Below are positions 7,247 to 56,954 of a stretch of DNA of 64,000 bases, in pieces. The notes beneath the pieces were generated by a model. It searched no databases, was not told the DNA's origin, and saw only the letters and a program-made list of their open reading frames with translations. The stretch is from Minisyncoccota bacterium (GTDB lineage: Bacteria; Patescibacteriota; Minisyncoccia; Phycocordibacterales; PALSA-1337), in assembly GCA_017991475.1 (NCBI GenBank), contig JAGOQK010000003.1:848-64847 (forward strand). The letters run 5' to 3'. Numbering within the stretch: position 1 is the first letter of the stretch; each line of letters opens with the position of its first letter. The translations under genes and the position numbers were made by a program.

Positions 7247-7314
7247 AGGTTATATATTTTCGTATGTCAGGCCAAGATACCATGGCAGGCGAAGAAAGTA
7301 AAGCTTTAATCACT

Positions 7315-7420
7315 GTGAGGAAGACATGTGTGTTTCTGACGGTGCTTCGTTGTATTTGTACACTACACTTTAAAGAACCGTTCTGCGAAGCACCGTCAGA
7401 AACACACATGTCTTCCTCAC
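7315..7420. repeat. Long perfect inverted repeat (35-bp arms, about 36-nt loop) in the divergent rpsT/ruvA intergenic region
   Basis: GTGAGGAAGACATGTGTGTTTCTGACGGTGCTTCG ... CGAAGCACCGTCAGAAACACACATGTCTTCCTCAC, exact complement; shares the CATGTGTGTTTCTGA-like motif with hairpins at 12196, 31209 and 36972. Confidence 0.85.
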
Positions 7421-7445
7421 GGTGCCTTATTTGCTATACTAACCC

Positions 7446-8031: not shown

Positions 8032-8194
8032 CGAAATCAGTATGTGCAAATTATGCACATACAGCTACCAACATATTTTCAAATACAGTTGACGAATCTT
8101 TGTACGGTGATAAAATTACCGTACCAACTTTCCTCTCTTGTTCGAAAAAGCCGACAGATCTACCAAGAACTGGCGGTTTTTTGATTGAAAAGCA

Positions 8195-8213
8195 ATATGC
8201 ATTTTTTGCATAT
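8195..8213. promoter_or_regulatory. Palindrome ATATGCA-TTTTT-TGCATAT upstream of the RhuM-like gene, a possible operator or promoter element
   Basis: Perfect 7-bp inverted repeat 45 nt upstream of the chosen start codon. Confidence 0.3.
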
Positions 8214-8258
8214 TACAAACCAGGGAAAGAATTTTTACCAATTAACTACAAAACTATT

Positions 8259-8777
8259 ATGAAGAAAAAACCAATCAATAACTCCGGCGAGCTTATTATC
8301 TATTCAGGCAAGAACGGTGGCGTTGAGTTGCGTGCGGATTCCAAAAAAGAAACTATCTGGGCTACACAAGCACAAATTGCCGAACTATTTGAGGTAAACT
8401 CACAGGCAATCACAAAACACCTAGGAAACATATACTCCGAAGGTGAGTTATCCAGGCGGTCAACTTGTTCCAAAATGGAACAAGTTCAACATGAGGGAAA
8501 TCGACACGTCAGACGCAAAGTTGAATTTTATAACCTCGACGCCATTATCGCAGTCGGATATCGAGTCAACTCCAAACAAGCTACCCGATTCCGCATCTGG
8601 GCAACCCGAACTCTCCGCGAACACCTCATCAAAGGCTTCACTATCGATATGAAGAAGATCGAAGGTACAGCATCTGGATTCGCTGACCTCCGTAAAACCG
8701 TTGATTTCATCGAGTCGCGAGCTCAAGGTCGTGTACAAGGTACTGTCGTAGTGAAGCTCAAGAAGGAGTTGTTGTAA
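8259..8777 (+). CDS. RhuM-family (virulence-protein RhuM / Fic-associated DNA-binding) protein
   Basis: Conserved RhuM core: KNGGVELRADSKKETIWATQAQIAELFEVNSQAITKHLGNIYSEGEL ... VRRKVEFYNLDAIIAVGYRVNSKQATRFRIWATRTL. Start set at MKKKPINN; the upstream extension is likely untranslated. Confidence 0.7.
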   Translation: MKKKPINNSGELIIYSGKNGGVELRADSKKETIWATQAQIAELFEVNSQAITKHLGNIYSEGELSRRSTCSKMEQVQHEGNRHVRRKVEFYNLDAIIAVGYRVNSKQATRFRIWATRTLREHLIKGFTIDMKKIEGTASGFADLRKTVDFIESRAQGRVQGTVVVKLKKELL

Positions 8778-8784
8778 TAAAAAT

Positions 8785-8820
8785 GGCTCCCCAAAACTTC
8801 ATGCGAAGTTAGAGGGAGCC
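8785..8820. terminator. Bidirectional stem-loop (GGCTCCC...GGGAGCC) between convergent genes
   Basis: 7-bp GC-rich stem with inner palindrome AACTTCATGCGAAGTT. Confidence 0.5.
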
Positions 8821-8826
8821 AGTGAT

Positions 8827-9471
8827 TCAGCGGGAAAAGACTCGGGAGCCGGCACACCAGTAACCTAGGTCCCCGATAGAGCCGGATTTGATGTCCCAAC
8901 CAACTACACTCCAGTACACATTCATGGAGGAAAATTCACCATCCGCACCAACAATGTGGAAGATATTTGGGAGTCCATCAGTTAGAAGAATCCCCTCCTG
9001 TCCTTCACTTTGGAGTGTAAGGAGATGGTGAAGGTGAGCTAAACTAATCAGTTCCTTACCATCCTCGATCTGACGGAGAATCTGCAAGCCATTCGAATTC
9101 ATAAGAAGTTCGCGCGAACAAAGAATGGTCTCGTGGATATTAATCTCAACTTTTGAGGAAAACATCTGGGTAAAGTTGTTTCCGAGGCTACGGAACTTCA
9201 CACCGCCGACCACACCCCTGCCAAATTTACCTTTAGCTTCGAAGCGTTCGAATGCGGGACACTTGATAGTATCATGAGACTTGAGTCGATAAGGGAGTGA
9301 AGGTTCAGTAACAATCATCTGAAGCCGTTCCGCGACCATTTCAGGATCGCGCTTGCCGTCCATAATCAGCATGCTAATTTTGCCCCACAACTTGAACAAC
9401 CGTTCGAACACATTGATATTACTCATATCGTTTCCTATTCTATTTTGATGAACTACATACCCGTTACTCAC
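8827..9471 (-). CDS. Hypothetical protein, no recognisable family
   Basis: 214-aa ORF convergent with the RhuM-like gene; no motif recognised. Confidence 0.4.
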   Translation of the reverse strand: MSNGYVVHQNRIGNDMSNINVFERLFKLWGKISMLIMDGKRDPEMVAERLQMIVTEPSLPYRLKSHDTIKCPAFERFEAKGKFGRGVVGGVKFRSLGNNFTQMFSSKVEINIHETILCSRELLMNSNGLQILRQIEDGKELISLAHLHHLLTLQSEGQEGILLTDGLPNIFHIVGADGEFSSMNVYWSVVGWDIKSGSIGDLGYWCAGSRVFSR

Positions 9472-12195: not shown

Positions 12196-12320
12196 GCAGA
12201 CACCGCGCAGGTGGCGCATGTGTTTTCAGCATGTCATGCTTTGGCGGTCATATAAAGTCCGGATCTTCAATCCTAAACATGACATGCTGAAAACACATGC
12301 GCCACCTGCGCGGTGTCTGC
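12196..12320. repeat. Long perfect inverted repeat (43-bp arms, about 39-nt loop), hairpin family member B
   Basis: GCAGACACCGCGCAGGTGGCGCATGTGTTTTCAGCATGTCATG ... CATGACATGCTGAAAACACATGCGCCACCTGCGCGGTGTCTGC. Loop (as reverse complement) begins TTTAGGATTGAA, as in the copies at 31209 and 36972. Confidence 0.9.
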
Positions 12321-15629: not shown

Positions 15630-18281
15630 CTACTTCAACTCCCCCCAACTCTCCCCTATCGCACCATCTGCTCTCAGTGCAATCCCTTTGGTATCTTCAA
15701 GACTCATGACACCCTCCATGATCTTCTCGATCTCCTTCGAGACCGCTTCTGCCTTTTCATTCTTGATCTCATAGACGAGCTCGTCGTGAACTTGGAGCAA
15801 CGCATGAACATCAGCCTCAAGACCATTCTTCTTGATATACTCATCCACTCGTACCATCGCGATCTTGATCACGTCAGCCTCCGTTCCTTGGATCGGTGCA
15901 TTGATAGCCATACGCTCTGCCTGAGCGCGAATATAGGGAATCTTAGACTTGATACCCTCGAAGTATCTGCGACGACCATAGAAGGTCTCTGTGTAGCCAC
16001 GACGCGCAGTCTCAGCCTTCACTTCATTGAGGTAGTTCGCGAGCATTGAGAATGTGTGGAAATAATCATCATAGAATTTCTGCGCAGTCGGACGATCGGT
16101 GCCAATACTCTTCTGGAGCGACGTCACGCCCATACCATAGAGCATGCCGAAGTTGATGGCCTTGGCTTGGCGGCGCATCTCAGAGGTCACCTGATCCTGT
16201 GGGACCTTGAATACAAACGCTGCAACTGATGCATGCACATCCTGTCCTCCTTTGAAGATCTCTATCATCTTCTCGTCGTTCGACAAGAAAGCTGCGATAC
16301 GGAGCTCGATCTGGGAATAGTCGAAGCTGCAGAGCTTGTATCCCCTCTCAGCGATGAATGCATATCTGATGGCTTTGCCGAGCTCGGTCTTGATCGGGAT
16401 ATTCTGGAGATTGGGATTGATAGACGCCATACGACCTGTCGCTGATCCTGCTGATACGAGATGTGAGTGCAGACGATTATTCTTGTCGAGAAGTGGCGGT
16501 ATCGCATCGATATAAGTCGAAAGAAGTTTGGTAAGTTCACGGTACTCGAAGATGAGCTTCACGATCGGGTGAAGGTCGACGAGCTTTTCGAGCTCTGATT
16601 CTTTGGTCGAGCGTGCACCACCCGCAGTTTTCTTCATACCCTTTGCCGTCAATCCGAGCTTGTCAAAAAGTACTTCACCGAGCTGCTTGGGTGAACTGAT
16701 ATTGAATTCCATATCCGCAAGCTTCCAGATCTCCTTTTGCAGTCGATCAGCCTCTGCGTGATACTTTTTGCCGAGATCTTCGAGCAGTATCTTGTCTACC
16801 TTGATACCGCGCTCCTCCATCTTGTCAGTGATCGGAATGAGTGGAAGTTCAATATCTTCATACACCTTTCGCAGATTCCTTTTATCGAGCTCCGCAAATA
16901 CTGTCTCGCGCGCTTTCCCAAACTCATCCGTATTGGCAAAATTGAGCAGATCTTCTAGTGTCGGATTCGTCAGGTTCGAGTTCACCACCCATAGCGCAAG
17001 TAATGTCTCTTTGAGAACCGTCGGATCAATGGCGCTATTAAAAAGAGAGGTTGATGTGGGTGCGGGTGAAGTAGTGGTTGGATTTACATCTGCTGTGCTG
17101 TCATTCCCGCGCAGGCGGGAATCCAGGGTTTTACCAGGAACTTTATTTTTGCTATCCGTCGCCCCTGCGTTCGAGTCAGTGGTATGACCCTGGATTCCCG
17201 CCTGCGCGGGAATGACAGCAGAAGCCGCTCCTACACCCGCCCCTCCACCCACCACCTTCTGCAAGCGCTGCACCAACGTTCGAAATTCGAGTTGCGTCCA
17301 AAGCGTCGTCACCTTCTTGATATCCAATCCTTCCTTGAATGTCTTCTCCGGCAACACAAACTCCACCGGCGCCTTCCTATTGATCGTCGCGAGCATCTTG
17401 CTGAATTCTGCCTCCTCTTTGTTATCTTTCAAGAGCTGCACAATTCTCGGCGTAATCCCTGCATCCAAGAATTTTTTCTCATGGCCTGCCTCGAGCTCCT
17501 TATACATATTCTCGATCGTCCCAAATGTCGTGATGAGAATGGTTGCCGTCTTTTCACCGATCCCTTTCACGCCGATAATATTGTCCGATGGATCTCCACG
17601 AAGTCCCTTGTAGTCAGGAATGAGTTCTGGCCCAAATCCAAATCGCTCACGCACCATATCTTCGTCATAGATGATCGTATCCTTGATTCCCTTTTTCAGA
17701 GTATAAACGCGCACAGTTGTCCCTTTAACCAACTGTAAGGTATCCATATCACCCGAGGCGATAACAATCTCAAGTCGATGGTCAGCAGTCGGCAGTCCTT
17801 GCGACTTTAGTTTCGAGCGGCTCTGACTGTCGACTGCTGACTGTCGACTAATCACTTGTTCTACTATGGTTCCCAACATATCATCTGCTTCATATCCTTC
17901 CTTGCTATACATCGGTATGTCGAGCGCCGTGAATATATCCGGAGACCGATTGATCTGGGTGATGAGGTCATCATCAGTCTCCTTGCGTTGTGCTTTGTAG
18001 CCCTTGTACGCTTCATGGCGGAATGTGAGACCCTTGAGATCATAGCAAGCTACTACATAGTCAGGCTTGAGTTGCTCAATGATGCTGATGAGCATGGTCG
18101 AGAGACCGTAGAGTGCACCCGTAGGCTCGCCACGCGCCGTCGAGAAGTCAGGCAGGGCGTGGTAGGCACGATGAAGTATTGCGTGAGTATCGAGGAGTAC
18201 CAGGCGCTTGGTTTCTACCTTCTCGGCTTTTGGGGATTTTGCAGGCTTTTTTGTGGCTGGTGACATAGGGGCATTGTACAC
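15630..18281 (-). CDS. polA: DNA polymerase I (5'-3' exonuclease + 3'-5' exonuclease-like + polymerase domains) carrying an in-frame palindromic-repeat insertion in the inter-domain linker
   Basis: 883 aa. 5'-nuclease N-terminus (LVLLDTHAILHRAYHA), polymerase motifs (DYSQIELRIAAFLS, motif B RRQAKAINFGMLYG, motif C LQVHDELVYE). Linker contains ...AVIPAQAGIQ...SRLRGNDS... encoded by the hairpin repeat at 17097-17219. Confidence 0.95.
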   Translation of the reverse strand: MYNAPMSPATKKPAKSPKAEKVETKRLVLLDTHAILHRAYHALPDFSTARGEPTGALYGLSTMLISIIEQLKPDYVVACYDLKGLTFRHEAYKGYKAQRKETDDDLITQINRSPDIFTALDIPMYSKEGYEADDMLGTIVEQVISRQSAVDSQSRSKLKSQGLPTADHRLEIVIASGDMDTLQLVKGTTVRVYTLKKGIKDTIIYDEDMVRERFGFGPELIPDYKGLRGDPSDNIIGVKGIGEKTATILITTFGTIENMYKELEAGHEKKFLDAGITPRIVQLLKDNKEEAEFSKMLATINRKAPVEFVLPEKTFKEGLDIKKVTTLWTQLEFRTLVQRLQKVVGGGAGVGAASAVIPAQAGIQGHTTDSNAGATDSKNKVPGKTLDSRLRGNDSTADVNPTTTSPAPTSTSLFNSAIDPTVLKETLLALWVVNSNLTNPTLEDLLNFANTDEFGKARETVFAELDKRNLRKVYEDIELPLIPITDKMEERGIKVDKILLEDLGKKYHAEADRLQKEIWKLADMEFNISSPKQLGEVLFDKLGLTAKGMKKTAGGARSTKESELEKLVDLHPIVKLIFEYRELTKLLSTYIDAIPPLLDKNNRLHSHLVSAGSATGRMASINPNLQNIPIKTELGKAIRYAFIAERGYKLCSFDYSQIELRIAAFLSNDEKMIEIFKGGQDVHASVAAFVFKVPQDQVTSEMRRQAKAINFGMLYGMGVTSLQKSIGTDRPTAQKFYDDYFHTFSMLANYLNEVKAETARRGYTETFYGRRRYFEGIKSKIPYIRAQAERMAINAPIQGTEADVIKIAMVRVDEYIKKNGLEADVHALLQVHDELVYEIKNEKAEAVSKEIEKIMEGVMSLEDTKGIALRADGAIGESWGELK
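17097..17219. repeat. 123-bp palindromic element (33-bp perfect arms with a nested TTCCCGCGCAGGCGGGAA mini-palindrome) embedded in-frame in polA
   Basis: GCTGTCATTCCCGCGCAGGCGGGAATCCAGGGT ... ACCCTGGATTCCCGCCTGCGCGGGAATGACAGC. Length is a multiple of 3 and the polA ORF reads through it. Confidence 0.85.
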
Positions 18282-24505: not shown

Positions 24506-24508
24506 TTA

Positions 24509-24675
24509 AAGCGCACTGCCAAGAATGATACTTACGGCGTCGAGGACTTGTCCAAGTGAGCTGAAATTATTAAACATTCTGGCATGGGCTGCGTATGTCC
24601 CGTATGCCAGAATGTTTTGTAATTTCGCGAAACGAGTCCCGCAGACGCCGTAAGTATCATTCTTGGCAGTGCGCT
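24509..24675. repeat. Nested hairpin: outer 32-bp perfect inverted repeat enclosing an inner 14-bp inverted repeat, between yebC and ruvC
   Basis: AGCGCACTGCCAAGAATGATACTTACGGCGTC ... GACGCCGTAAGTATCATTCTTGGCAGTGCGCT; inner AACATTCTGGCAT...ATGCCAGAATGTT. Confidence 0.85.
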
Positions 24676-24687
24676 ATACTTATAACT

Positions 24688-25580: not shown

Positions 25581-28139
25581 TTGGGGGCTATTTGCTACTA
25601 TTACCATATGTCCCACCACAAAAAAAAGATTCATCGTCATGTAAAGGCGATTGTTGTGCTAGCTATTTCTGGGGTTTTCATTGTGACTGGTCTCGTGGCA
25701 CTCTGGGTGGCTACGCTCGAGATGCCGGACCTCGACTCATTCCAGAACAGGAAGATTATAGAGTCTACCAAGATATACGACCGTACGGGTACCATACTGC
25801 TCTATGATACCGGCAGAGACGCGAAGCGCACCGCACTTCCCCTCTCTGCGATTTCTTCATTCATACAAGAAGCCACTATCGCCATCGAGGACTCGGATTT
25901 TTATACCAACATCGGCATCGAGCCGACTTCCATCATCCGTGCAGTACTCGCAAACCTAGCAACAGGGGGATATGGGCAGGGTGCGTCCACGATCACTCAA
26001 CAAGTCGTCAAAAACTCACTTCTCACCAAAGACAAGACCATTACACGCAAAATCAAAGAGTGGGTCATTGCAGTCAGACTTACGCGTATAATGAGCAAGG
26101 ATCAAATCCTTGAAACGTACCTCAACGACACCTCATATGGAGGTACTATTTTCGGCGTTGAGGAAGCGAGTCGTGCATTCTTCGGTAGGTCAGCCAAGGA
26201 TGTAACACTTGCACAAGCTGCATATCTTGCCGCAATACCCCAGGCACCAACGTACTATTCACCGTACGGAACACATCGTGATGATCTTACTGCACGCCAA
26301 AGACTCGTGTTGAAACGAATGCTCGATCTCGACCTGATATCCCAAAGCGAGCACGATGAAGCTGTAGCCGAGGAGGTAGTATTCCTTTCTAAGAACGATT
26401 CAAGTATTCGTGCCCCTCATTTCGTCATGTTTGTGAAGGATTACGTAACACAGAAATATGGTGAAGAGCTTACGAGTAGTGGCGGCCTGCGCATCATCAC
26501 GACGCTCGACTATGGCATGCAAGAAAAAGCTGAGGATGTCGTGGTCAAGTTTACCCCATCCTTGGAAAGCAACTTCAACGCGAGCAACACCGCGATGGTA
26601 GCAATCGATCCGAAGACAGGTGACATACTCACCATGGTCGGTTCACGAGATTACTTCGACCCGACAATAGACGGAAATTTCAATATCGCTCTCGCACAAC
26701 GACAACCAGGATCCACATTCAAGCCATTCGTGTACGCAACTGCATTCGAGAGGGGGTATACGCCCGAAACTGTGCTGTTCGATGTAGAAACGGAGTTCTC
26801 TACGGAATGTACAGTCGAAGGCAAGCCAAAGAAAGCTGGCGAGGATCCGACGAAGGTTTGTTACTCCCCCGATGAGTACGATCACACATTCCCTGGTCCC
26901 ATGAGCATCCGAGAGGCCCTTGCTCACTCGAGAAACATACCGGCTGTGAAGGCGTTGTACCTTGCCGGCATCAATCGATCCATTCAGACCGCTGAGAACA
27001 TGGGTATCACCAGCCTCACCGATCCTGCCCGTTATGGACTCACCTTGGTCCTTGGAGGTGGCGAGATATCACTTCTTGAGCTCACGAGTGCCTATGGCGT
27101 ATTCGCCAACGACGGCATGCGCAACCCGTATCGATCTGTGTTGCGCGTCGAGGATAGCAAAGGAACTATTCTTGAAAGTGCAGAAGTGTCTCCTGTAGCA
27201 ACAGAGGCTTTGAAACCGGAGATCGCTCGTCAGATATCAGATATACTGTCTGATGAAAGCGTACGTATGGAAAGCCTCAAACCTATCGGTGAAAGTGTCG
27301 GGCGCAAAGTTGCCATCAAGACAGGTACGACCAACGACTATCGAGATGTCTGGGCTGTCGGGTATACTCCCAATCTTGTTGTTGGGGCCTGGGCAGGAAA
27401 GAATGACAACACGCCCATGAAACAGAATATCGCTGGTCTTATTATTGCACCTGTCTGGGGAGCATTCATGTCGCAGGTCGAAGAAACGTTCCCTCCAGAA
27501 AACTTCCAGGAGCCTCCGGCACCCCTTTCTGACAACAAGCCGGTGCTGCGTGGAATATGGCAGGGTGGTATTTCATACTGGAAAGACTCTATCTCGGGCA
27601 AGATTGCTACTGAATACACCCCCTCTGAAACCAAGAAGGAAGTTGCCTTCAATAATGTTCACTCTATACTTCACTGGGTCAACAAGAGTGACCCTCGTGG
27701 CGAAGCTCCCAAGAACCCCAACGACGACTCACAGTATGAGTACTGGGAGTACGCGGTTAGAAAATGGTTCGATAAATACCAGGAGGAGCACCCTGATTTC
27801 AAAGAAGCAACCTCAATCGAGATTCCCACTGCTGTAGATGATATTCACCTACCTGAGAAGGCTCCTCGTGTATCGTTTGTTACACCTACATACGGTGCAT
27901 CATTAAACTCAAAGGAAAGTTTGAACATAAAACTTCAAGCAACCGGAGCTTACCCCGCACAAAAAACAGAAGTGTACATCAATGGTAAGTATATTCTTAC
28001 CTCTGAAAAAGATCCTCTCAACATTTCTTTCTTCCCCTCTGACGTTGGCAACCTGTCTGGAAATACTACTCTTTCTGTAGTTCTCTACGATTCCGTCTTC
28101 AATAAAGGGATGGCTTCAACGACATTCTCTATTAATTAA
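25581..28139 (+). CDS. Class A penicillin-binding protein (transglycosylase + transpeptidase, PBP1A-type) with C-terminal extension
   Basis: N-terminal TM, GT51 motifs (EDSDFYTNIGIEPTSIIRA, GASTITQQ), transpeptidase SxxK (STFKPF), SxN and KTGT motifs. Start could be 25608. Confidence 0.9.
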   Translation: MGAICYYYHMSHHKKKIHRHVKAIVVLAISGVFIVTGLVALWVATLEMPDLDSFQNRKIIESTKIYDRTGTILLYDTGRDAKRTALPLSAISSFIQEATIAIEDSDFYTNIGIEPTSIIRAVLANLATGGYGQGASTITQQVVKNSLLTKDKTITRKIKEWVIAVRLTRIMSKDQILETYLNDTSYGGTIFGVEEASRAFFGRSAKDVTLAQAAYLAAIPQAPTYYSPYGTHRDDLTARQRLVLKRMLDLDLISQSEHDEAVAEEVVFLSKNDSSIRAPHFVMFVKDYVTQKYGEELTSSGGLRIITTLDYGMQEKAEDVVVKFTPSLESNFNASNTAMVAIDPKTGDILTMVGSRDYFDPTIDGNFNIALAQRQPGSTFKPFVYATAFERGYTPETVLFDVETEFSTECTVEGKPKKAGEDPTKVCYSPDEYDHTFPGPMSIREALAHSRNIPAVKALYLAGINRSIQTAENMGITSLTDPARYGLTLVLGGGEISLLELTSAYGVFANDGMRNPYRSVLRVEDSKGTILESAEVSPVATEALKPEIARQISDILSDESVRMESLKPIGESVGRKVAIKTGTTNDYRDVWAVGYTPNLVVGAWAGKNDNTPMKQNIAGLIIAPVWGAFMSQVEETFPPENFQEPPAPLSDNKPVLRGIWQGGISYWKDSISGKIATEYTPSETKKEVAFNNVHSILHWVNKSDPRGEAPKNPNDDSQYEYWEYAVRKWFDKYQEEHPDFKEATSIEIPTAVDDIHLPEKAPRVSFVTPTYGASLNSKESLNIKLQATGAYPAQKTEVYINGKYILTSEKDPLNISFFPSDVGNLSGNTTLSVVLYDSVFNKGMASTTFSIN

Positions 28140-28181
28140 ATAGATAAACAAAATGACACACTGCGCAGTGTGTCATTTTGT

Positions 28182-28442
28182 TTATCTGATATCTCCTATT
28201 TTACGAATAGATTGCTGTGAATTCGCCTCAATGAGAATAGCGTGTTTCTTGATAAAGATTTGAGACTTCTGCATTGCAGTAAGACCTTCGAGTACTGCAG
28301 TATCTGAGTTGAAATTGACCCTCTCTATCGGAATATCAAAACCTGCGTGTTTACGAATAGCATCACAAACTGACATGCGAACAACGACTTCTTGCGCATG
28401 TTTACCCTGAACTCGCTTGAAAAATTCGGATATATTAAGCAT
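28182..28442 (-). CDS. Small DUF721/DciA-like protein downstream of dnaN
   Basis: 86 aa, conserved position after dnaN; weak sequence-level support. Confidence 0.4.
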   Translation of the reverse strand: MLNISEFFKRVQGKHAQEVVVRMSVCDAIRKHAGFDIPIERVNFNSDTAVLEGLTAMQKSQIFIKKHAILIEANSQQSIRKIGDIR

Positions 28443-29549
28443 TTACCTATTCATCGGCATCACGAGGTAGAGAAATGTTTGATCTCCTGAAACTGGCTTG
28501 ATAACAACAGGACGATTGAGACCGTTGAGCTGAAGGGATACACTGTCTGCATCAATCGATTGGAATCCATCGATAAGATATCGATAATTGAAATTAATCT
28601 CCATCTTATCACCTGTTAGAGCTGCATCCACGAGTGTTTGGTTCTCTCCAATATCGCTATTTTTAGTCTGTATTTCAAACATTTTTCCTTTTGGATCGAT
28701 GGTGAGATGAACTTGATTGAACTTATCAGAGAAAATGTTTGATATTTTCAAGGAATTGAGAATGTCTTGTTTGAGTGCAACTACTTCCGTTGTGAATGTT
28801 TTAGGAATAATCTGTCTATAATCAGGAAAAACTCCATCTATTACGCGTGATACGATATACACACCATCATGCTCAAATGAAATAAGATTTTTGTTTGCCG
28901 TAACAGTTACCGAACCATTCATGCTTTGAAGGATTCTAATGATATCTTGGGTATTCTTGAATGGAATCAGAGTATCAACAACTTTTGATCCTCCGTCGCT
29001 TTTAACTTTCTTCTCAGCAAGACGAAATGAGTCCGTTGCTGCAAATGTGAGGTATTCCCCATCCTTATATACATAAATGCTTGAAAGCTCTGGTTTAACG
29101 CTCGATATTGAAGCACTATATGCCACAGCGCTCAATCCTTGAACAAACACTTCTGGTGATATTGAATACTCTTGACCATCTGAAACCTTCGGTATTGGGG
29201 GAAAATCCTCAGCAGGAAGGGTTTTTATTACTCCTTTGGACTTATTGGTCTTTATATGGGCATTACCAGATATAACCTCAATTGATATAACCTGATTTTG
29301 ATCATTAGCCTGAGATATAAATGAAGAAAGAGTATGTGCAGGTACTGCAATAGTACCTATTCCATCTGATTTTACTGGAACAGCAACCTCTACACCCACA
29401 TCGAGATTTGTGGCTTTGAATAGTGCAGTATTCTTATCAACTTCAATAAGAATACATGAGAGTACAGGTAATGTCTGGTGCTTTCCTGCTACCCTCTCTA
29501 TGAGTTGGATCGTTTCTCTCAGTTTTTTGAATCCTATGTCTATCTTCAT
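28443..29549 (-). CDS. dnaN: DNA polymerase III beta sliding clamp
   Basis: 368 aa three-domain clamp; N-terminus MKIDIGFKKLRETIQLIERVAGKHQTLPVLSCILIE; located next to dnaA. Confidence 0.9.
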   Translation of the reverse strand: MKIDIGFKKLRETIQLIERVAGKHQTLPVLSCILIEVDKNTALFKATNLDVGVEVAVPVKSDGIGTIAVPAHTLSSFISQANDQNQVISIEVISGNAHIKTNKSKGVIKTLPAEDFPPIPKVSDGQEYSISPEVFVQGLSAVAYSASISSVKPELSSIYVYKDGEYLTFAATDSFRLAEKKVKSDGGSKVVDTLIPFKNTQDIIRILQSMNGSVTVTANKNLISFEHDGVYIVSRVIDGVFPDYRQIIPKTFTTEVVALKQDILNSLKISNIFSDKFNQVHLTIDPKGKMFEIQTKNSDIGENQTLVDAALTGDKMEINFNYRYLIDGFQSIDADSVSLQLNGLNRPVVIKPVSGDQTFLYLVMPMNR

Positions 29550-29776
29550 AGTAGTTTTTAATTTAATTTATCACAGTATGTTATTAGTCCTGTGGGTATG
29601 TGAATAAAGTTATTTAATGGCTCTAAATATGGATACTATAGGAATTATTTATTACACAGCATGTTGAAGAATTTTTTCTCTATATCCCTTTGAATAACTT
29701 CTGTGTATTACTCACCTATTTACCCACACACTTTTCCTATCCTATATACAACCTATTCACATACTTTTCCCCAGTT
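29550..29776. other. Candidate oriC: AT-rich dnaN-dnaA intergenic region with several near-consensus DnaA boxes
   Basis: TGTGGGTAT (29591), TGTGAATAA (29599), TTACCCACA (29719) and TATTCACAT (about 29755) are each within 1-2 mismatches of TTATCCACA; region is AT-rich and sits between dnaN and dnaA. Confidence 0.4.
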
Positions 29777-31123
29777 TTATAACATCGTACGAACCTGGGT
29801 AATTTCTTGGGAAAGCAACTGATCAGTCTTCATCTCTTCACGCATCTTTTCATATGAGTGAATAACAGTAGTGTGATCTCTTCCTCCAAGCTTTTCTCCA
29901 ATTGAGGGGAATGATATGCCAAAATCCTCTCTCAATATATACATAACCACCTGGCGTGGTCTCACCACCTCCTTGCGTCTCGTTTTGTTGTAGATACTAT
30001 CCTCGTCGATGTTGTAGAATTCCGATACAATCTTCACTACATCCTTCACAGACATCATTTTCTTCGGTTTTACGTTGTTTTTGAGTATATTTTTGATTTC
30101 ATTGATACTCAATTCCCTGTTTTTTAGTTGAGTTTGGCATGCAATCACGTTGATAATACCCTCTATTTCGCGGATATTATCCTCAATAGATGATGCTATG
30201 TGGTCGATAACCTCATCAGAGAGAGTGATATTGTGTGGTGCACACTTGCTACGTACGATCATGGTACGAGATTCCTGGTCGGGCTCAGGTATGTCTATGA
30301 TCATTCCTGCATTGAATCTACCCTTGAGGCGATCTTCAAGTCCAGGAATTACATTTGGGTGTTTATCTGACGAGAATACGAGCTGACGAGCGGAATCATA
30401 GAATGTATTGAAAAAGTGGAAGAGTTCTTCTTGGAACTTCTCTTTACCCGCGAAGAATTGTACATCGTCCATGATGATAACATCATATTTTCTGTACTTA
30501 TCTTTGAATAGCTGCACCTTTGCTTCTTGAATAGCGGCAAAAAGCTCAGAACCGAATCTTTCTGAGGTCAGGTAAAACACCTTTTTATCTGGAAATAGCT
30601 TCTTGATCTGGTTCCCTACAGCTTGGATCATGTGTGTCTTACCGCGACCCGTCTGTCCATATATGAACAATGGGTTGTATGACTGCCCAGGAGCCTTCAC
30701 AACACTCTGAGAGGCTGCGTGAGCGACTTCGTTGAAGGGTCCAACCACAAGAGACTCAAATGTATATCGTGGATTGAGGTTATCCTCCTTGTTGATATAG
30801 AAATCTTGTAGGGGCATGGCTAGTGTAGGCATGTTTAGAGCATCCTTTTTGGCTTGATGACCTCCCTTTCCCTCTTCTTTTATGATCACATACTCGAGGG
30901 CACGGACACGCTCGTTCATTTGGCGCAAAATACGCAAGATTGAGTTGTGAAACTTCTTTTGGAGCCATTCATGGGTAAATGAGTTTGGAACTCCGAGGTA
31001 GACTACCCCCTCATCTTCACGGAGTATCTTGATATCTTTGAACCAGGTCGAGAAGTTTGCTTGAGAGACGGCAGTCTCTATCTCTATGAGCGCAGTTTGC
31101 CACATTTTCGTAAAGTCATTCAT
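29777..31123 (-). CDS. dnaA: Chromosomal replication initiator DnaA
   Basis: AAA+ motifs (GQTGRGKTHMIQAVGN, IIMDDVQF), C-terminal DNA-binding domain (YHNITLSDEV..., GGRDHTTVIHSYEKM). Confidence 0.95.
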   Translation of the reverse strand: MNDFTKMWQTALIEIETAVSQANFSTWFKDIKILREDEGVVYLGVPNSFTHEWLQKKFHNSILRILRQMNERVRALEYVIIKEEGKGGHQAKKDALNMPTLAMPLQDFYINKEDNLNPRYTFESLVVGPFNEVAHAASQSVVKAPGQSYNPLFIYGQTGRGKTHMIQAVGNQIKKLFPDKKVFYLTSERFGSELFAAIQEAKVQLFKDKYRKYDVIIMDDVQFFAGKEKFQEELFHFFNTFYDSARQLVFSSDKHPNVIPGLEDRLKGRFNAGMIIDIPEPDQESRTMIVRSKCAPHNITLSDEVIDHIASSIEDNIREIEGIINVIACQTQLKNRELSINEIKNILKNNVKPKKMMSVKDVVKIVSEFYNIDEDSIYNKTRRKEVVRPRQVVMYILREDFGISFPSIGEKLGGRDHTTVIHSYEKMREEMKTDQLLSQEITQVRTML

Positions 31124-31208
31124 AGGATTTGGTGCCTATAAGTATATACCTGTTTATAGATTTGCAAACTTGTGGAGAATCAAAATTTATGTTGATAAGT
31201 TGGGGACA

Positions 31209-31328
31209 ACTGAAACACAGTGGTGTGCGTGTGTTTTCTCAGTGTCATGTTTATGATTGAGCACTAAGCTTAAAAAGACTGATAAAGCATGACACTGAGA
31301 AAACACACGCACACCACTGTGTTTCAGT
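31209..31328. repeat. Long perfect inverted repeat (41-bp arms, 38-nt loop), hairpin family member C, in the dnaA-rpmH intergenic region
   Basis: ACTGAAACACAGTGGTGTGCGTGTGTTTTCTCAGTGTCATG ... CATGACACTGAGAAAACACACGCACACCACTGTGTTTCAGT; loop TTTATGATTGAGCACTAAGC... Confidence 0.9.
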
Positions 31329-35401: not shown

Positions 35402-36463
35402 TTAGAATGTTACTTCATTCTCTGTTGCTGTATCACCGCTGAATGATGCTGAAAATCCCCCGCTCGCACCTTGTAGAATCTTGTCAGTGTTTCTGATATC
35501 GAGGCGTATGTTGGATGTACCTGCAGATCCCTCGGGTGCGCGTAATACTACTGACTGACTTGATGAAAGCTCGGTACGCTTCACGCTGTTGATGAGCCAT
35601 GTCAGCGCGAGATTTCCGATACCATCTGCTGGTTTATTGAAGCCAAATGGTACCGCGAGCACAGAGGTCTCCTTTTCAGAACCAATGCGCACCGTATTTT
35701 TTACTGCTTTGTTAAAGAAAGTGCCATAGAGCGGGTCGGTAACATAGAAGCCTATTGAAGGACTTGTTGCAGCTATGGATATGCTCCCTTGGCCCTGTGC
35801 TGCACTATCGCGCGCAGCTACAGACACAGTCACATCGTAGGGTCGTGGGACGATATCTCCAGCGAGATAGATGGATTGTTTACCGTATCCTGACTGGTTT
35901 TGGAGCACTGTACTCCCTTTCTTCCACGTGTATACGAGTGTTTTCGGATCGTACTCTGTGCCACTCGCTGTGGCGAGATGTGGAACAGCGATTATTTTGA
36001 CTATATTCTGATAACGCGGCGATATCTTGCCCAAGAAAAGTGGATGAACATAACCATCAGATTCGACGAGCATGTCTATAGAGCTGGCTGTTATAGTGAT
36101 CGAATCAGACATACTCGTGCCGATAGTTGGACGAGCAGTTATCGAAACTACAAGCGACTTTCCGAGCTCAGGCGCAATGACTTTAACCGTTTTCAAACCG
36201 ACACCGCTCTGGACAGCTTTACCATTTATAGACCACGATACGGTAGACGAATCGATATCGATTGAATAACTCTTGAGGGTGATAGTTACTTCCTGTCCTG
36301 GGTATGGGTTGGGCGAAGATGTTTCGATGACGAGCCCGCTTATACCGGCTGGTATCGCTTGGGCGAATAGGTATGAGGTATGAGGTGTGAGGCATGAAGC
36401 AAAAAACACAAAACAAAATAGCAGTACTACTATGGATGAGAAATGAGAAAAACGAGAGTTCAT
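35402..36463 (-). CDS. Secreted hypothetical protein (signal peptide; beta-rich, Ig-like repeats likely)
   Basis: Start placed at MNSRFSHFSSIVVLLFCFVFFAS signal peptide; within the T4SS-like block. Confidence 0.5.
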   Translation of the reverse strand: MNSRFSHFSSIVVLLFCFVFFASCLTPHTSYLFAQAIPAGISGLVIETSSPNPYPGQEVTITLKSYSIDIDSSTVSWSINGKAVQSGVGLKTVKVIAPELGKSLVVSITARPTIGTSMSDSITITASSIDMLVESDGYVHPLFLGKISPRYQNIVKIIAVPHLATASGTEYDPKTLVYTWKKGSTVLQNQSGYGKQSIYLAGDIVPRPYDVTVSVAARDSAAQGQGSISIAATSPSIGFYVTDPLYGTFFNKAVKNTVRIGSEKETSVLAVPFGFNKPADGIGNLALTWLINSVKRTELSSSQSVVLRAPEGSAGTSNIRLDIRNTDKILQGASGGFSASFSGDTATENEVTF

Positions 36464-36518
36464 TGACTCTATTTTAGCAATATTATGAGCTATATGCGAT
36501 GAAAAATGTGTATAGGTA

Positions 36519-36953
36519 TCAGTTTTTGAGGCCCCCATTTGGAGGTCGAGTACCGCCCTGGTTCAAAGGTTGCTGTTTTTGGGCTGCTCTGCGCACACCT
36601 CCACTATTGAGGTGTGGTCCGCTAGATAGTGATCCCACAGAGATACCAGTTTTATCCTCGATACGAGTAGTGACCACTATGATAATCATAGCCAAAGTGA
36701 TGGTGGGAAGTGCTTGGATGGCAGGAATGATTTCAGCGATAGCGGAGACACCGCTTGCCGCCAGCCTTTTGCCATTCATGAATCCGAATCCAGACTTGAA
36801 CAAGTATATATTAATGAGGACCCAATAGGTTGGCCCCACAATGATGCCAACAATAGGTATGAGGGTCAGAAGGTCAGCAATGATAGCGGAACCTATAAGC
36901 AGAGCTGCTGCTTTGTTGCTGATACGATTTTTCTTGCCAGATTCTTGTTCCAT
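36519..36953 (-). CDS. Small polytopic membrane protein (3 TM) with Gly-rich C-terminus
   Basis: ORF in the T4SS-like block, directly downstream of hairpin D. Confidence 0.45.
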   Translation of the reverse strand: MEQESGKKNRISNKAAALLIGSAIIADLLTLIPIVGIIVGPTYWVLINIYLFKSGFGFMNGKRLAASGVSAIAEIIPAIQALPTITLAMIIIVVTTRIEDKTGISVGSLSSGPHLNSGGVRRAAQKQQPLNQGGTRPPNGGLKN

Positions 36954-36971
36954 AAGTTCATTATAGCAGAA

Positions 36972-37093
36972 GAGCCCTCATGTACGCGGTACGCATGTTT
37001 TGTGCATGTCATGTTTAGGATTGAACACTAGAAATAATGTTACCTACTAAGCATGACATGCACAAAACATGCGTACCGCGTACATGAGGGCTC
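36972..37093. repeat. Long perfect inverted repeat (42-bp arms, 38-nt loop), hairpin family member D, inside the T4SS-like gene block between the VirB4-like gene and the next gene
   Basis: GAGCCCTCATGTACGCGGTACGCATGTTTTGTGCATGTCATG ... CATGACATGCACAAAACATGCGTACCGCGTACATGAGGGCTC; loop TTTAGGATTGAACACTAGAAATAATGTTACCTACTAAG. Confidence 0.9.
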
Positions 37094-37104
37094 GTACCTC
37101 AATA

Positions 37105-38916
37105 TTACCCAGCCTGTTCCAGATCCTTCTTCGCCTGTTGAATACTCAAAACTTGAGCAGGATTGGTCGTGATGATCTGATCCTCGGTATATGATGCAAC
37201 GATCTTGATGGCGACGTGCTTGAGACCCACGAAGAATATACCCTCCCCCACATCTGATTCGAGCAAGAGGTACTTCTCTTCATCAGTCAGGTTAAATGTT
37301 TTCTGGATATGGTCGATGACTGTAGGAGACTGTTTGAGGAGTATTTGGATCGATGAGTTGGTTACGATAGGCAATCCATATGGTGAATTCAAGAAATCAT
37401 CCACGTCCTGGGTGATGGTAGCAAGTCCAAGGAAGTACTTGCGGCCGCGCTTGGCAAGGCTGAACAAGAATGAAGCTGTATCTTCAGACTTCATCATCCA
37501 CCACGCCTCGTCGATGACGAGCAGGCGCTTCTTGAGATTCTTGCGGATAGCATTCCAGATATAGTGAGTGACGATATACATAGCCACTGGCTTGAGTTCA
37601 TCTTCCATATCACGGAGCGAGAACACGGCAAATTTCTTGTTGATGTCGATGTTGGATGGCCTGTTGATGAAGCCTGACCATGTTCCTTTGGTGTACTTTG
37701 AGAGCCTCTGCACAAGCGATTCGCCGCCCTCCATTCCTGCAAGCACCAGCTCGAAGTCGGATAGGAGCGGTGGCTCAACGGTGCGGAAATCAGCCTCGGG
37801 CGTGATGTCTTTCAAGGCATAGGTCTCAGTGATGGCGCGATCGATGATAGCGTCTTCTTCTTGTGTGAGGCCTCCGAGCATGATGCGGAATAGTCCGACG
37901 AGGTTGATGATGTTCGAACGGAGTACATCAGCGCCAGATTCGTCCTCGCGTGGTATCGGGAGATCAAATGGGTTGATGTGGTGCTCAGAGTTGAGTGAGA
38001 TATTGAAGTACTTCCCTCCCGTAGCTTCTGCCATGTATTCGTACTCCTTCTCTGGATCGATGACGATAACATCCACATCGAACATGAGTGTTCGGAGGAT
38101 CTCAAGCTTAGTGTTGTAGGACTTTCCAGCACCGGCCACTGCGAATGTCACTGAGTTGTAGTTTTCAAGCGAGTAGCGATCAAAGAGAACAAGTGATGAG
38201 TTGTGACGATTGATACCGTAGAGGATACCCTTGTCTGAGGTGAGATCAAATGAAACGAATGGGAAAAGTGACGAGAGTGGCGAAGAGTTGAGCTTGGAGT
38301 GCACTGCGAGCTGGTCATCCGCGATAGGAATAACAGATTTGAATCCCTGCTCCTGCTGGAAGAGAGCTGGCTTCACATAGATGAGTTTGGATTCGAGGAT
38401 AGACTTGATCTCTGATTCGAGCTTATCGAGCTCGCCTTCGTTATCAGCGAATAGGGTGATATAAACACCGACGTCGAAGAGATGTTCCTGTGCCTGCATG
38501 AGTTGGTCGCGGAGCTGCTCGAGATCTTGGTATGCGGTATCGAGCGCTGGATCACGGACAAGGCCTTTCTCTTCCCTGTGTGAAATCTGACTTTGAACCT
38601 CAGCAACCTTCTTCTGGAAATGCCTCAAAATTTTTGCAGTATCGACGGGGTGTATGAATATCGAAATATTGAATATTTTGTCGAGATTGATGATCGGTGC
38701 AAACCAGCTCTCGTCAAGGAAGCGAGGGTATGAGATCACGAAAAGTGTGCGACCGACTTTCTCACCAAGATTGATCTCCTTTGGGCTTACCTTGAGTGCA
38801 GACGGCGAAATGACATCCTTGAGTTCTAGGACACCAGCCTGATAGATCTCTTCTGGCAGGATAGAGACAATAGGAGATGATTCTTTTTTGCCGAATAGTT
38901 TGTTGAGGAATGACAT
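37105..38916 (-). CDS. virB4: VirB4/TraC/CagE-family type IV secretion ATPase (Gram-positive-type, about 600 aa)
   Basis: Walker A SVTFAVAGAGKSYNTK, VIDPEKEYEYMAEATGGKYFNI, Walker B LLVIDEAWWMM, C-terminal LATITQDVDDF. Confidence 0.8.
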   Translation of the reverse strand: MSFLNKLFGKKESSPIVSILPEEIYQAGVLELKDVISPSALKVSPKEINLGEKVGRTLFVISYPRFLDESWFAPIINLDKIFNISIFIHPVDTAKILRHFQKKVAEVQSQISHREEKGLVRDPALDTAYQDLEQLRDQLMQAQEHLFDVGVYITLFADNEGELDKLESEIKSILESKLIYVKPALFQQEQGFKSVIPIADDQLAVHSKLNSSPLSSLFPFVSFDLTSDKGILYGINRHNSSLVLFDRYSLENYNSVTFAVAGAGKSYNTKLEILRTLMFDVDVIVIDPEKEYEYMAEATGGKYFNISLNSEHHINPFDLPIPREDESGADVLRSNIINLVGLFRIMLGGLTQEEDAIIDRAITETYALKDITPEADFRTVEPPLLSDFELVLAGMEGGESLVQRLSKYTKGTWSGFINRPSNIDINKKFAVFSLRDMEDELKPVAMYIVTHYIWNAIRKNLKKRLLVIDEAWWMMKSEDTASFLFSLAKRGRKYFLGLATITQDVDDFLNSPYGLPIVTNSSIQILLKQSPTVIDHIQKTFNLTDEEKYLLLESDVGEGIFFVGLKHVAIKIVASYTEDQIITTNPAQVLSIQQAKKDLEQAG

Positions 38917-54752: not shown

Positions 54753-56954
54753 TTATCTCCTGTGCCCCATCGGCGGGCGTGGCGGCCTTGGAGTCTCCTC
54801 TTTCTTTGTGAAGAAGTCCGGATTTGCACCCTTGATAGAGAGATTGAGGCGACCCTTCTCGTCGACTTCCTTCACGACGACAGGAACCTTGTCCCCTTCT
54901 TTCACATATGTCTCTGGTCTCTCGACGCGGAATCCTGCCATTTCTGAGACGTGCACGAGTCCTTCAGCGTTGGGACCTATCTTCACGAATGCGCCAAAGT
55001 CCATGAGGCGTACCACTTCCCCTTCAAATCTTTCACCAGGCATATATTCACGAGTCATGTTGTAGATGATCTCCTTCGCTTTTGCGGCGGTCTCATTCTT
55101 GCCTGTGATGAATATAGAACCATCATCCTCAATAGTGATGTCCTCTACATGTGTCACATCGCGGATCTCATTGATCGTCTTGCCTCCAGAGCCGATGACG
55201 AGACCGATCTGATCAGGCTTGATCTTCATGACGATGATCTCTGGTGCGTTCGGTGATATCTTGGCACGCGGAGCAGCTATCGCCTTTTCGATAACATCGA
55301 GGATCCTGTAGCGTGCAGCTTGCGCCTTGGTGAAAGCTTCAGCGAGTATCTTGAGCGGAATACCACCCACCTTCACATCCATCTGCACAGCAGTGATACC
55401 TGCACGAGTTCCCGCAACTTTGAAATCCATATCTCCATGATGATCTTCTGGTCCTTGAATATCAGTGAGTACTTTGTATTGCGCAGGCCTACCCTGCGCA
55501 TCAACACGCATCATGAGGCCGCTCGCTATTCCTGCTACTGGTGCCTTGATCGGAACTCCCCCATCCATGAGTGCGAGTGTTGATCCGCAGACAGATCCCA
55601 TCGAGGTTGATCCATTCGATGCCATCGCTTCAGATACGAGACGGATTGTGTACGGGAAAATATCTTTTGCAGGAATGACGGGAACGAGAGCTTTCTCTGC
55701 GAGTGCACCGTGTCCGATCATGCGGCGATTGGTGCCACCAACTCTCCCGGTCTCACCTGTCGAAAATGGCGGGAAGTTGTAGTGGTGCATGAAACGCTTG
55801 TCCTCATGTTCGATGAGTGCATCCATGACCTGCGCATCTCCGGGACTTCCGAGAGTGAGCGTCGAGAGGATGTGTGTTCCTCCGCGGTAGAAGATACCTG
55901 AGCCATGAAGGATCGGTGAAACACCACCAGCTTGTGCATAGAGTGGTCTGACCTCATCCATTCCGCGGCCATCTGCACGCTTGCCGTTGTCGATAGCTTC
56001 TGTGTGGAGGAGTTCATTCACTGCTTCCTCGAATACCTCTTGCGCCATCGCAGCATCTCCCTTCTCAGCCTCACTCTTACCGGTGATCATTTTCGCCTCG
56101 AATAGATCGGTCCAGATCTTGTTGATCTCATTGATCTTGTCATGTCCTGGCTTTGCACTCATGACGAAGCTTGCCAACTTCGGTGCAATCTCAGCGTGAA
56201 ACAGTTCCTTTGTGCCTGGTGTCGGCTCTGGAAGTTCAACCTCAGTCTTAGGTTTACCAATCTCTGCGATGATCTTCTTCTGCCATGCTTGCACCTTCTC
56301 GATTTCGGCAGATGCCAGTGCAAGACCTTCATTCATAGTATCTTCGCCAACTTCTTTCGAAGCGACCTCGATCATGTTGATGGTGTCATCTTTTCCGCAA
56401 GCGACCATCTCGAGTACGACACCCGCTTCTTCGCGTGCTTTGAAATCAGGATTGACGAGCCACCCCCGGTCGTGGCCGAGGGCATGCTTTCCATCGCGTG
56501 CCATGCGTACCGCAGAGACAGGACCATTCCAGGGAATGTTCGAAGTGCCGAGTGCGAGTGACGCTGCAATCACTGAGACTACATCAGGATCATCTTGATC
56601 GATAGAGAGTGTGGTGATGATGACCTGCACCTCATTGCGCATGCGCTGATTGAAAAGTGGGCGGATAGTGCGATCAACAATTCTTCCTGACAAAATCGCC
56701 TCAGTCGAAGGTCTCCCTTCCCTGCGGACGTATCGTGACCCGAGAATTTTCCCAGTTGCATAAAAACGCTCCTCGTAATCTACGGTGAGTGGGAAGAAAT
56801 CACCTTCCTTCATCTTGCCCATGACTGCAGTGGCGAGTACAACTGTGTTGCCGTAGCGGACCATGACGGAACCATCAGCATTCTCTGCAAGGTCGTTGAA
56901 TTCGGCCGTGAGAGTCTTGCCACCGATCTCGATCGAGTATTCTTTTTTGTTCAT
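54753..56954 (-). CDS. pnp: Polyribonucleotide nucleotidyltransferase (PNPase)
   Basis: Two RNase PH domains, KH (QIGLVIGSGGKTINEIR) and S1 domains; 733 aa. Confidence 0.95.
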   Translation of the reverse strand: MNKKEYSIEIGGKTLTAEFNDLAENADGSVMVRYGNTVVLATAVMGKMKEGDFFPLTVDYEERFYATGKILGSRYVRREGRPSTEAILSGRIVDRTIRPLFNQRMRNEVQVIITTLSIDQDDPDVVSVIAASLALGTSNIPWNGPVSAVRMARDGKHALGHDRGWLVNPDFKAREEAGVVLEMVACGKDDTINMIEVASKEVGEDTMNEGLALASAEIEKVQAWQKKIIAEIGKPKTEVELPEPTPGTKELFHAEIAPKLASFVMSAKPGHDKINEINKIWTDLFEAKMITGKSEAEKGDAAMAQEVFEEAVNELLHTEAIDNGKRADGRGMDEVRPLYAQAGGVSPILHGSGIFYRGGTHILSTLTLGSPGDAQVMDALIEHEDKRFMHHYNFPPFSTGETGRVGGTNRRMIGHGALAEKALVPVIPAKDIFPYTIRLVSEAMASNGSTSMGSVCGSTLALMDGGVPIKAPVAGIASGLMMRVDAQGRPAQYKVLTDIQGPEDHHGDMDFKVAGTRAGITAVQMDVKVGGIPLKILAEAFTKAQAARYRILDVIEKAIAAPRAKISPNAPEIIVMKIKPDQIGLVIGSGGKTINEIRDVTHVEDITIEDDGSIFITGKNETAAKAKEIIYNMTREYMPGERFEGEVVRLMDFGAFVKIGPNAEGLVHVSEMAGFRVERPETYVKEGDKVPVVVKEVDEKGRLNLSIKGANPDFFTKKEETPRPPRPPMGHRR

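Follow-up and report, generated by a model that had tools for sequence, protein, structure and literature searches.

The window analysed here is a stretch of 64,000 nucleotides that carries dnaA, dnaN, rpmH, rnpA, yidC, ruvABC, polA, a PBP gene, enolase and three tRNAs, and it is part of the chromosome of a Parcubacteria-like CPR bacterium around the replication origin, near dnaA. The sources of related sequences label the bacterium Pacebacteria, Parcubacteria or Taylorbacteria. A megablast search with 15 kb of the window against phage genomes returned no match. The cumulative GC skew turns at ~34-36 kb, consistent with a replication origin in that region, and the G+C content falls to 37% at 28001-30000 (dnaN and the dnaA-dnaN spacer) versus a window average of ~47%. 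The only recombination- or nuclease-type genes in the window are those for a Xer-like tyrosine recombinase and housekeeping nucleases; RuvABC is also encoded, and the PNPase gene lies at 54753-56954. Between ruvA and the Mur ligase gene, the window contains an extra segment of ~1.5 kb (8100-9471) with a RhuM-family gene (8100-8777) and an unannotated 214-aa open reading frame (8827-9471) on the minus strand; at two related loci (L153 and L155) the Mur ligase gene directly follows ruvA.

The site under study lies within a T4SS-like gene string, all of it on the minus strand. PrgI/VirB3-like and TraC-like genes are located upstream of a VirB4-like gene, which is followed by a gene for a small predicted membrane protein and, beyond it, by larger genes, one of which matches a T4SS pilin weakly. 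An earlier note on this DNA had placed a hairpin inside this co-directional string, directly after the VirB4-like gene, and that placement is correct. The features, in the order of transcription for the genes and signals, are as follows.

37105-38916, minus strand: VirB4-like gene for an ATPase of 603 aa (Pfam matches: TraG P-loop, AAA_10 and DUF87; homologues are named VirB4/TraC in their sources)
37094-37104, minus strand: spacer of 11 nt between the VirB4-like stop codon and hairpin D
36972-37093, no strand: hairpin D, a palindromic element with 42-bp perfect arms and a 38-nt centre, equally perfect on both strands
36972-36992, no strand: left arm of the basal stem, GAGCCCTCATGTACGCGGTAC (21 nt; partner 37073-37093), unlike that of the other copies
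36993-37013, no strand: remnant of the mid-stem motif, GCATGT, and the apical stem TTTGTGCATGTCATG (partner 37052-37072)
37014-37051, no strand: loop, or apical module, of hairpin D with the family-specific block TTTAGGATTGA
36960-36968, minus strand: extended -10 promoter box TGCTATAAT, 3 nt past hairpin D and 6 nt ahead of the ATG, putatively of leaderless type
36519-36953, minus strand: the next gene, a predicted membrane protein (144 aa; ATG at 36953) with little conservation among relatives

Hairpin D is a 122-nt inverted repeat, present at the coordinates first given for it (36972-37093). Its arms, 36972-37013 and 37052-37093, match over 42 bp with 0 mismatches, where 0 such matches are expected by chance and 100 shuffles gave none; the pairing reaches 47 bp when one C.A/T.G mismatch is included, which leaves a loop of 28-38 nt. 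The 42-bp stem that the earlier note had reported is real. An RNA copy read in the direction of the flanking genes has a folding free energy of -99.1 kcal/mol, compared with -44.5 +/- 3.9 kcal/mol for shuffled sequences (z = -14.1; matched by 0/200 shuffles). On the transcript strand, the order is the VirB4-like stop codon, 11 nt, hairpin D, TTC, TGCTATAAT, 6 nt and ATG. A perfect duplex of 42-47 bp, once transcribed, is sufficient for an RNase III substrate and for a block to 3'-5' exonucleases; the length criterion for the former is ~20 bp or more of continuous double-stranded RNA, and the transcript-sense fold of hairpin D contains 42 perfect pairs.

Hairpin D is not an assembly artefact, because an independent Logan assembly (L001) is identical to the window across 7,853 nt before stopping 30 nt into the hairpin, and because related hairpins were found again in several independent assemblies. 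Assemblers break at hairpin D.

The VirB4-like site and the promoter of the next gene

We compared the VirB4-like site across about 80-90 orthologous loci, here cited by L numbers. At most of these loci, the spacer after the VirB4 stop codon is 0-30 nt long and the hairpin is absent. Within the sub-clade, spacers are either 15-65 nt long and free of a long hairpin (for example L143, L059, L160, L161 and L162), or 142-152 nt long with a long hairpin (the window, L139-142, L058 and L065) or a more complex structure (L064). The hairpins at the VirB4 site of L058, L065 and L139-142 measure 115-121 nt and have stems of 39-42 bp. The hairpin is dispensable and has been gained or lost between relatives.

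Many of these relatives have 91-99% amino-acid identity in VirB4, but that identity is a misleading measure of relatedness, because the fourfold-degenerate sites of the window and its nearest relatives are 47-54% different and their Fpg proteins are just 76-82% identical. The VirB4-like protein (37105-38916) is 98-99% identical to those of L057 and L139-L143, while the fourfold-degenerate sites are ~47-54% diverged, which indicates exceptionally strong purifying selection. A recent insertion of the hairpin, as the 99% VirB4 identity might suggest, is rejected in view of the extreme constraint on VirB4 together with the same divergence at fourfold sites and in Fpg. Hairpin D and the hairpin of L139-142 share their site, orientation and loop type and are 60% identical over the full length; they are probably orthologous, with an origin older than the split between these species, and hairpin D is thus not a very recent insertion. 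The small gene directly downstream of VirB4 is often missed by tblastn, being too divergent.

L139-L142 are four population variants of one species, and they offer a rare direct view of how the palindrome mutates. The hairpin (3454-3568 in L142), with a stem otherwise perfect over 39 bp, occurs as one perfect haplotype and as three with a single mismatch in one arm (L140 and L141 are the same, L139 is different). Arms therefore mutate singly, and the mismatches are later removed.

The next gene has an extended -10 box of its own. The arrangement of TGnTAnAAT, 5-8 nt and ATG coincides with independently called gene starts at 2777, 7447 (ruvA), 46269, 49247 (uvrD) and 54725, and because of this recurrence, and from its spacing, we infer that the box is a leaderless-type promoter. 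With the called starts at 25608 and 36953 added, seven starts have the box, 6-8 nt ahead of the ATG; leaderless mRNAs may therefore be a common feature of genes that open a transcription unit in this organism. Of 21 sub-clade loci, 16 carry the box, 6-9 nt ahead of the next gene's start codon, and among them are L143, L059, L160, L161 and L162, which lack a long hairpin. L143 has the downstream-gene allele and the TTCTGCTATAAT of the window, with a 47-nt unstructured spacer where hairpin D would be. The promoter is consequently older than the hairpin and independent of it, because the box persists at hairpin-less loci, L143 among them. We had also considered that the element delivered the promoter, which is rejected because of the same TTCTGCTATAAT at the empty site of L143.

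The spot between the VirB4-like gene and the next gene is a transcription-unit boundary, not the interior of a translationally coupled operon. The earlier note had proposed that the hairpin may separate the expression of the ATPase module from that of the downstream genes; that proposal is not supported, given the next gene's own -10 box, its presence at 16/21 loci and the absence of the hairpin from most relatives.

Sibling copies and the wider superfamily

The hairpin family to which the earlier note assigned hairpin D exists. Its core, TGTCATGTTTAKGATTGA, occurs three times in the window, at 12196-12320 (inverted), 31209-31328 and 36972-37093, where 0.08 occurrences are expected. Besides hairpin D, the long hairpins of the window are the following.

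12196-12320, no strand: I2, a 125-nt family member with a 43-bp stem; it separates the divergent amidase and fpg genes and is inverted with respect to hairpin D
31209-31328, no strand: I3, a 120-nt family member with a stem of 41-44 bp; rpmH lies on one side of it and, on the other, the DnaA-box cluster that precedes dnaA
7311-7424, no strand: superfamily member I5, with a different loop type that is common to the L058 genome, 7 nt before the TGCTATACT-N6-ATG of ruvA
17096-17220; 24507-24678; 28142-28187: unrelated long hairpins

The three core copies have apical stems that are 81-87% identical and loops that are 63-69% identical, while their outer ~20-bp stems are mutually unrelated and each is perfectly self-complementary. 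Two of the three are positioned between divergent genes (rpmH/dnaA and amidase/fpg). I5 is a more distant relative, so that 64 kb hold three core copies and one distant copy, with only patches of sequence in common.

The unrelated hairpins have diverse settings. The 125-nt hairpin at 17096-17220 lies in-frame within polA (15630-18281, minus strand) and belongs to a different, widespread palindromic family, TGTCATTCCCGCGCAGGCGGGAATGACA, which is intergenic in L062, L067, L068, L094 and L099. It encodes ...SAVIPAQAGIQ...LDSRLRGNDST in the variable linker from the 5'-3' exonuclease to the polymerase domain, and PolA is 883 aa long in the window versus 845-846 aa in two relatives. Between yebC and ruvC, 24507-24678 forms a 172-nt nested hairpin whose outer stem of 32-35 bp encloses a second stem of ~23 bp; its last bases are the -10-like TATACT before the ruvC start, and 7311-7424 is placed likewise before the ruvA promoter. 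The third, 28142-28187, is a perfect 46-bp palindrome without a loop (23-nt arms) between the convergent ends of PBP and dnaN; in the L057 genome, the equivalent position is taken by a superfamily hairpin of 113 nt. Simple loop-less palindromes exist elsewhere in these genomes as well (28142-28187, L068 and L132).

Upstream of dnaA, a conserved cluster of DnaA-box-like sequences, TGTCCCCAACTTATCAACA...TCTCCACAAG, is present at 31124-31208 and at the orthologous loci of L057, L058, L059, L060, L160 and L161. A long hairpin abuts this cluster on its rpmH side in at least six genomes (the window, L057, L060, L065, L160 and L161); L058, L059 and L162 have no long hairpin there.

Across 869 kb of loci, we catalogued 15 hairpins of the superfamily, and more were found in L153, L157/159, L160 and L161; the sample spans about 12 genomes and about 40 kb of synteny. 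These long hairpins are found only in the sub-clade nearest the window, with none in ~60 more distant loci. Their geometry varies little, with lengths of 104-130 nt (median 120), stems of 31-47 bp (median 39) and loops of 28-61 nt (median 37). ACACAT appears in 8/15 stems (0.24 expected, p = 2e-11) and CACATG in 7/15 (0.15 expected), every time 22-26 bp from the loop; this shared, positioned motif shows that hairpins of different sites and genomes are homologous.

Stems selected as RNA normally tolerate G.U pairs on one strand. Among the 581 stem pairs of the superfamily, 580 are Watson-Crick, one is C.A and none is G.T, and the orientation of the loop flips between copies in one genome. Both observations indicate that the palindrome is maintained at the DNA level.

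The hairpins recur at a few places: between VirB4 and the next gene, between the ends of the T4SS string and yidC, between rpmH and dnaA beside the DnaA boxes, between dnaN and PBP, and between amidase and fpg. These four to five recurrent places are all transcription-unit boundaries. Occupancy is patchy at every one of them, and some sub-clade genomes, such as L162, lack hairpins in this region altogether. The elements can persist for long: genomes that are ~47-54% diverged at fourfold-degenerate sites have hairpins in identical positions at rpmH-dnaA and at amidase-fpg. The 15 elements are flanked by neither target-site duplications nor direct repeats, and the bases beside them are not conserved; the open reading frames of the 64-kb window include no DDE or Y1 transposase, RAYT or other obvious partner.

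Two further ideas were considered. An orientation bias relative to replication fits the three copies of the window, but L058 and L065 have opposite orientations on the same side of dnaA, and the idea is rejected. Insertion of an inner element into an older, short palindrome is unsupported, as hairpin-less VirB4/next-gene and rpmH/dnaA sites retain no matching residual palindrome, but the simple loop-less palindromes elsewhere in these genomes leave it conceivable.

Searches were also extended to larger collections. In 185,579 species genomes, the strict core pattern TGTCATGTTTANGATTGA gave 55 matches, close to the chance expectation and with 0 hairpins among them; the sole Saccharimonadales match is in a PpsA coding motif. 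This pattern is too narrow, because loops differ between genomes. A two-part core pattern had 0 matches in JGI metagenomes, the basal stems of D and I2, treated as possible 'spacers', had 0 matches in IMG/VR, and a relaxed palindromic core found nine viral loci, all of them coding coincidences or ordinary phage terminators.

Stems, loops and candidate explanations

We now compare stems and loops, separately, between sites and between genomes. Identities are read against a random-sequence baseline of ~45%, and the basal segment compared includes the shared mid-stem motif. At the amidase-fpg site, where three genomes have a hairpin in the identical position, the basal stems with that motif are identical at 26/28, 25/30 and 25/30 positions (83-93%), and they stay orthologous although neutral sites are saturated; the loops of the same three hairpins are 27-44% identical, versus ~45% for random sequence. 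The rpmH-dnaA site has the same tendency between genomes (basal stem 65%, loop 45%). Comparisons between sites of one genome have the opposite outcome. In L065, loops are 86-100% identical (37/37 for two oppositely oriented copies), compared with 54-62% for basal and 59-75% for apical stems; L161 has 74% for the loop and 52% for the stem, the window 63-69% for loops and 50-61% for basal stems, and the L057 genome 51-70% and 52-68%, respectively. The basal stem is thus a property of the site, and the apical module a property of the genome.

Identical loops on unrelated, perfectly paired stems cannot result from simple duplication with later divergence. Possible causes of the loop sharing are cassette-like replacement, short-tract ectopic conversion or co-evolution with a trans-acting factor. 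Tentatively, and with the odds against it, the hairpins may be two-module genomic elements of a kind not described before in CPR bacteria, in which an inherited, site-specific palindromic scaffold bears an apical loop cassette that is overwritten or homogenised across the genome, and they would then mark transcription-unit and origin-proximal boundaries. The agent would be either a dedicated DNA process, for example by an element or an enzyme directed at the apices of hairpins, or a factor acting in trans with which the loops co-evolve.

For hairpin D itself, the account that we consider probable, though by no means secure, is that it is an optional copy of a lineage-restricted palindrome superfamily, situated at a boundary with a pre-existing promoter, maintained as DNA and passive in its local effect. 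Each element would be a four-part unit: the basal stem (8-21 bp) is specific to the site, a shared motif resembling GCACATGTG follows at mid-stem, the apical stem measures ~16 bp, and the loop (~37 nt) is specific to the genome. Hairpin D would lie after the VirB4-like stop codon and ahead of the next gene's leaderless-type promoter, which was there before it. Mutations in a single arm would arise and then be removed, most plausibly by arm-to-arm copying at replication (template switching), by selection, or by both. When RNA polymerase leaves the VirB4 gene, the transcript is predicted to fold into a very stable hairpin, which may provide the VirB4 mRNA with a 3' end that resists nucleases such as PNPase, may be a substrate for RNase III and may lower read-through into the promoter of the next gene. 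A passive insulating or stabilising role is the functional statement for hairpin D that the sequence best supports. The recurrent occupancy of boundaries, the conserved amidase-fpg basal stems and the constant geometry could reflect selection for a function, rather than mere tolerance.

The hairpin could instead have been selected as a dedicated regulator (terminator, attenuator or RNase III processing site) by which the membrane-protein and pilin-like genes downstream are uncoupled from the VirB4 ATPase module. It is located exactly between the stop codon and the next promoter, four to six lineages have different hairpins at the VirB4 spot, the length of the stem suffices for RNase III, and the Correia elements of Neisseria provide a precedent (PMC2649163). 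However, most relatives with the same gene order lack the hairpin, including many that keep the promoter, hairpin D is not followed by a T-run, and strictly Watson-Crick stems with flipping loops argue against selection at the RNA level. The sibling copies are located between divergent promoters, and a barrier to read-through has no obvious role there, because the rpmH/dnaA and amidase/fpg promoters diverge. We judge dedicated regulation to be unlikely.

Another explanation sets the function in the DNA itself, with the hairpin as a binding or cruciform site for a protein encoded by the genome (for example, a recombinase, a nucleoid protein or a replication-associated factor) that marks domain or transcription-unit boundaries; the loop and the palindromic mid-stem motif would be recognised, and the loops would co-evolve with the protein in each genome. 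The strict Watson-Crick palindromes, the motif CACATGTG at a fixed distance from the loop, the genome-specific loops common to different sites and the conserved basal stem at amidase-fpg are all consistent with recognition, as are the hairpins directly beside the DnaA-box cluster in at least six genomes and the tyrosine recombinase and RuvABC encoded in the window. No candidate protein is linked to the hairpins, though, their presence is patchy and the L162 region has none, and we consider a dedicated protein site decidedly unlikely.

Hairpin D might also be a classical non-autonomous transposon (MITE- or REPIN-like) that recently inserted at a permissive intergenic site and is purely selfish. 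A repeated ~120-bp palindrome with a patchy, lineage-specific distribution and an inner part that is similar within a genome invites this view, and assemblies break at the element. Against it, there are no target-site duplications, conserved flanks or GTAG/CGTC tag, nor a DDE or Y1 transposase in the window; the termini are the least conserved part, paralogues share patches instead of the whole element, and orthologous copies persist across genomes whose neutral divergence is saturated. A recent, selfish insertion is strongly improbable. Still further from the data is a structured non-coding RNA or double-stranded RNA precursor with a guide- or spacer-like basal stem, which we all but discount: the layout resembles a short-hairpin RNA (a variable basal duplex, a conserved upper stem and loop, and constant geometry), but there are 0 G.U pairs in 581, the elements face either way with respect to genes and promoters, IMG/VR contains no match to the basal stem of D or I2, each site passes on its own basal stem, and Rfam offers generic hairpin models on both strands but no family.

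CPR/Patescibacteria genomes are tiny and tightly packed, and some of their phyla have the highest densities of perfect inverted repeats (PMC13155455). At least part of that signal consists of long, strictly perfect palindromes at transcription-unit boundaries. Their combination of site-inherited stems and genome-shared loops fits neither classical transposons nor REP elements, and an active process behind it, if there is one, would maintain or exchange DNA hairpins in a novel manner. At the T4SS-like locus, which is very strongly conserved, it is a promoter that separates the VirB4 module from the downstream genes, and the hairpin is optional rather than a conserved regulatory switch.

Comparison with known systems

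Like hairpin D, intrinsic terminators are stem-loops found where a transcription unit ends, immediately behind the stop codon. Their stems are 5-15 bp long with loops of 3-8 nt, whereas hairpin D has a stem of 42-47 bp and a loop of 28-38 nt, and where a terminator has its T-run, the stem of hairpin D is followed by TTCTGCTATAAT on the transcript strand. A scan of 36400-37600 for intrinsic terminators found 0 terminator-like sites. In Rfam 15, only tRNAs reach the gathering score in the window; a permissive scan returned generic miRNA-precursor hairpin models, on both strands and at no more than half the gathering score.

Replication template switching at quasipalindromes, in which one arm templates the other, is established in E. 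coli (PMC7202029). Such copying would let the sequence drift and still leave the arms perfectly complementary. The demonstrations concern a mutational process at short quasipalindromes of E. coli and yeast (PMC7202029); template switching is not known to maintain a family of elements with 40-bp stems, and it leaves the genome-specific loops unexplained.

The attC sites of integrons are likewise defined by structure (57-141 nt), with a sequence that varies while the hairpin shape is kept. In attC, however, the outer R and L boxes are conserved and the centre varies, while in these hairpins the centre is conserved and the outer part varies. attC sites have extrahelical bases and lie in cassette arrays, whereas the hairpins have no bulges and are dispersed. 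In place of the attC core sites RYYYAAC / GTTRRRY, the base of hairpin D reads GAGCCCTC/GAGGGCTC within a perfect stem.

Among 118,019 surveyed genomes, those of Parcubacteria phyla had the highest densities of perfect inverted repeats, which the survey did not characterise (PMC13155455), and the literature that we searched contained no published description of these palindromic elements. Two families of intergenic palindromes come closest. REPIN/REP elements (BIMEs) are intergenic palindromic repeats that form hairpins of ~100 nt, often at gene ends, and they constitute vertically persistent, lineage-specific families that are similar within genomes and different between them (PMC3116915, PMC3337134, PMC3733652). 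Membership in REP requires that the palindrome bear, at one of its ends, a conserved tetranucleotide, GTAG or CGTC (PMC3733652). REPs combine this tag with conserved arms, whereas the hairpin ends here read GAGC, GCAG, ACTG and GTGA, and the genome-specific signature resides in the loops instead of the arms. REPIN stems are imperfect, while these are perfect over 31-47 bp, with the termini as the most variable part, and REPs are associated with RAYT transposases, whereas the 64-kb window around the hairpins contains no RAYT.

The Correia elements (CREE) of Neisseria are intergenic inverted-repeat elements of ~100-150 bp that are co-transcribed and fold into hairpins; they can be cleaved by RNase III, alter the expression of neighbouring genes, and adjoin or create promoters (PMC2649163). 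By analogy, they are the best precedent for the earlier regulatory idea. MITEs and CREE have conserved terminal inverted repeats and a target-site duplication; the outer 8-21 bp of the hairpins have no sequence common to the copies (basal identity 50-68%), and none of the 15 elements has such a duplication. CREE in particular have conserved 26-bp terminal repeats, a TA target duplication and an IHF site, all of which are absent from these hairpins. The elements are most like REP/REPIN and Correia-type intergenic palindromes, yet by the characters that define those families they stand outside both.
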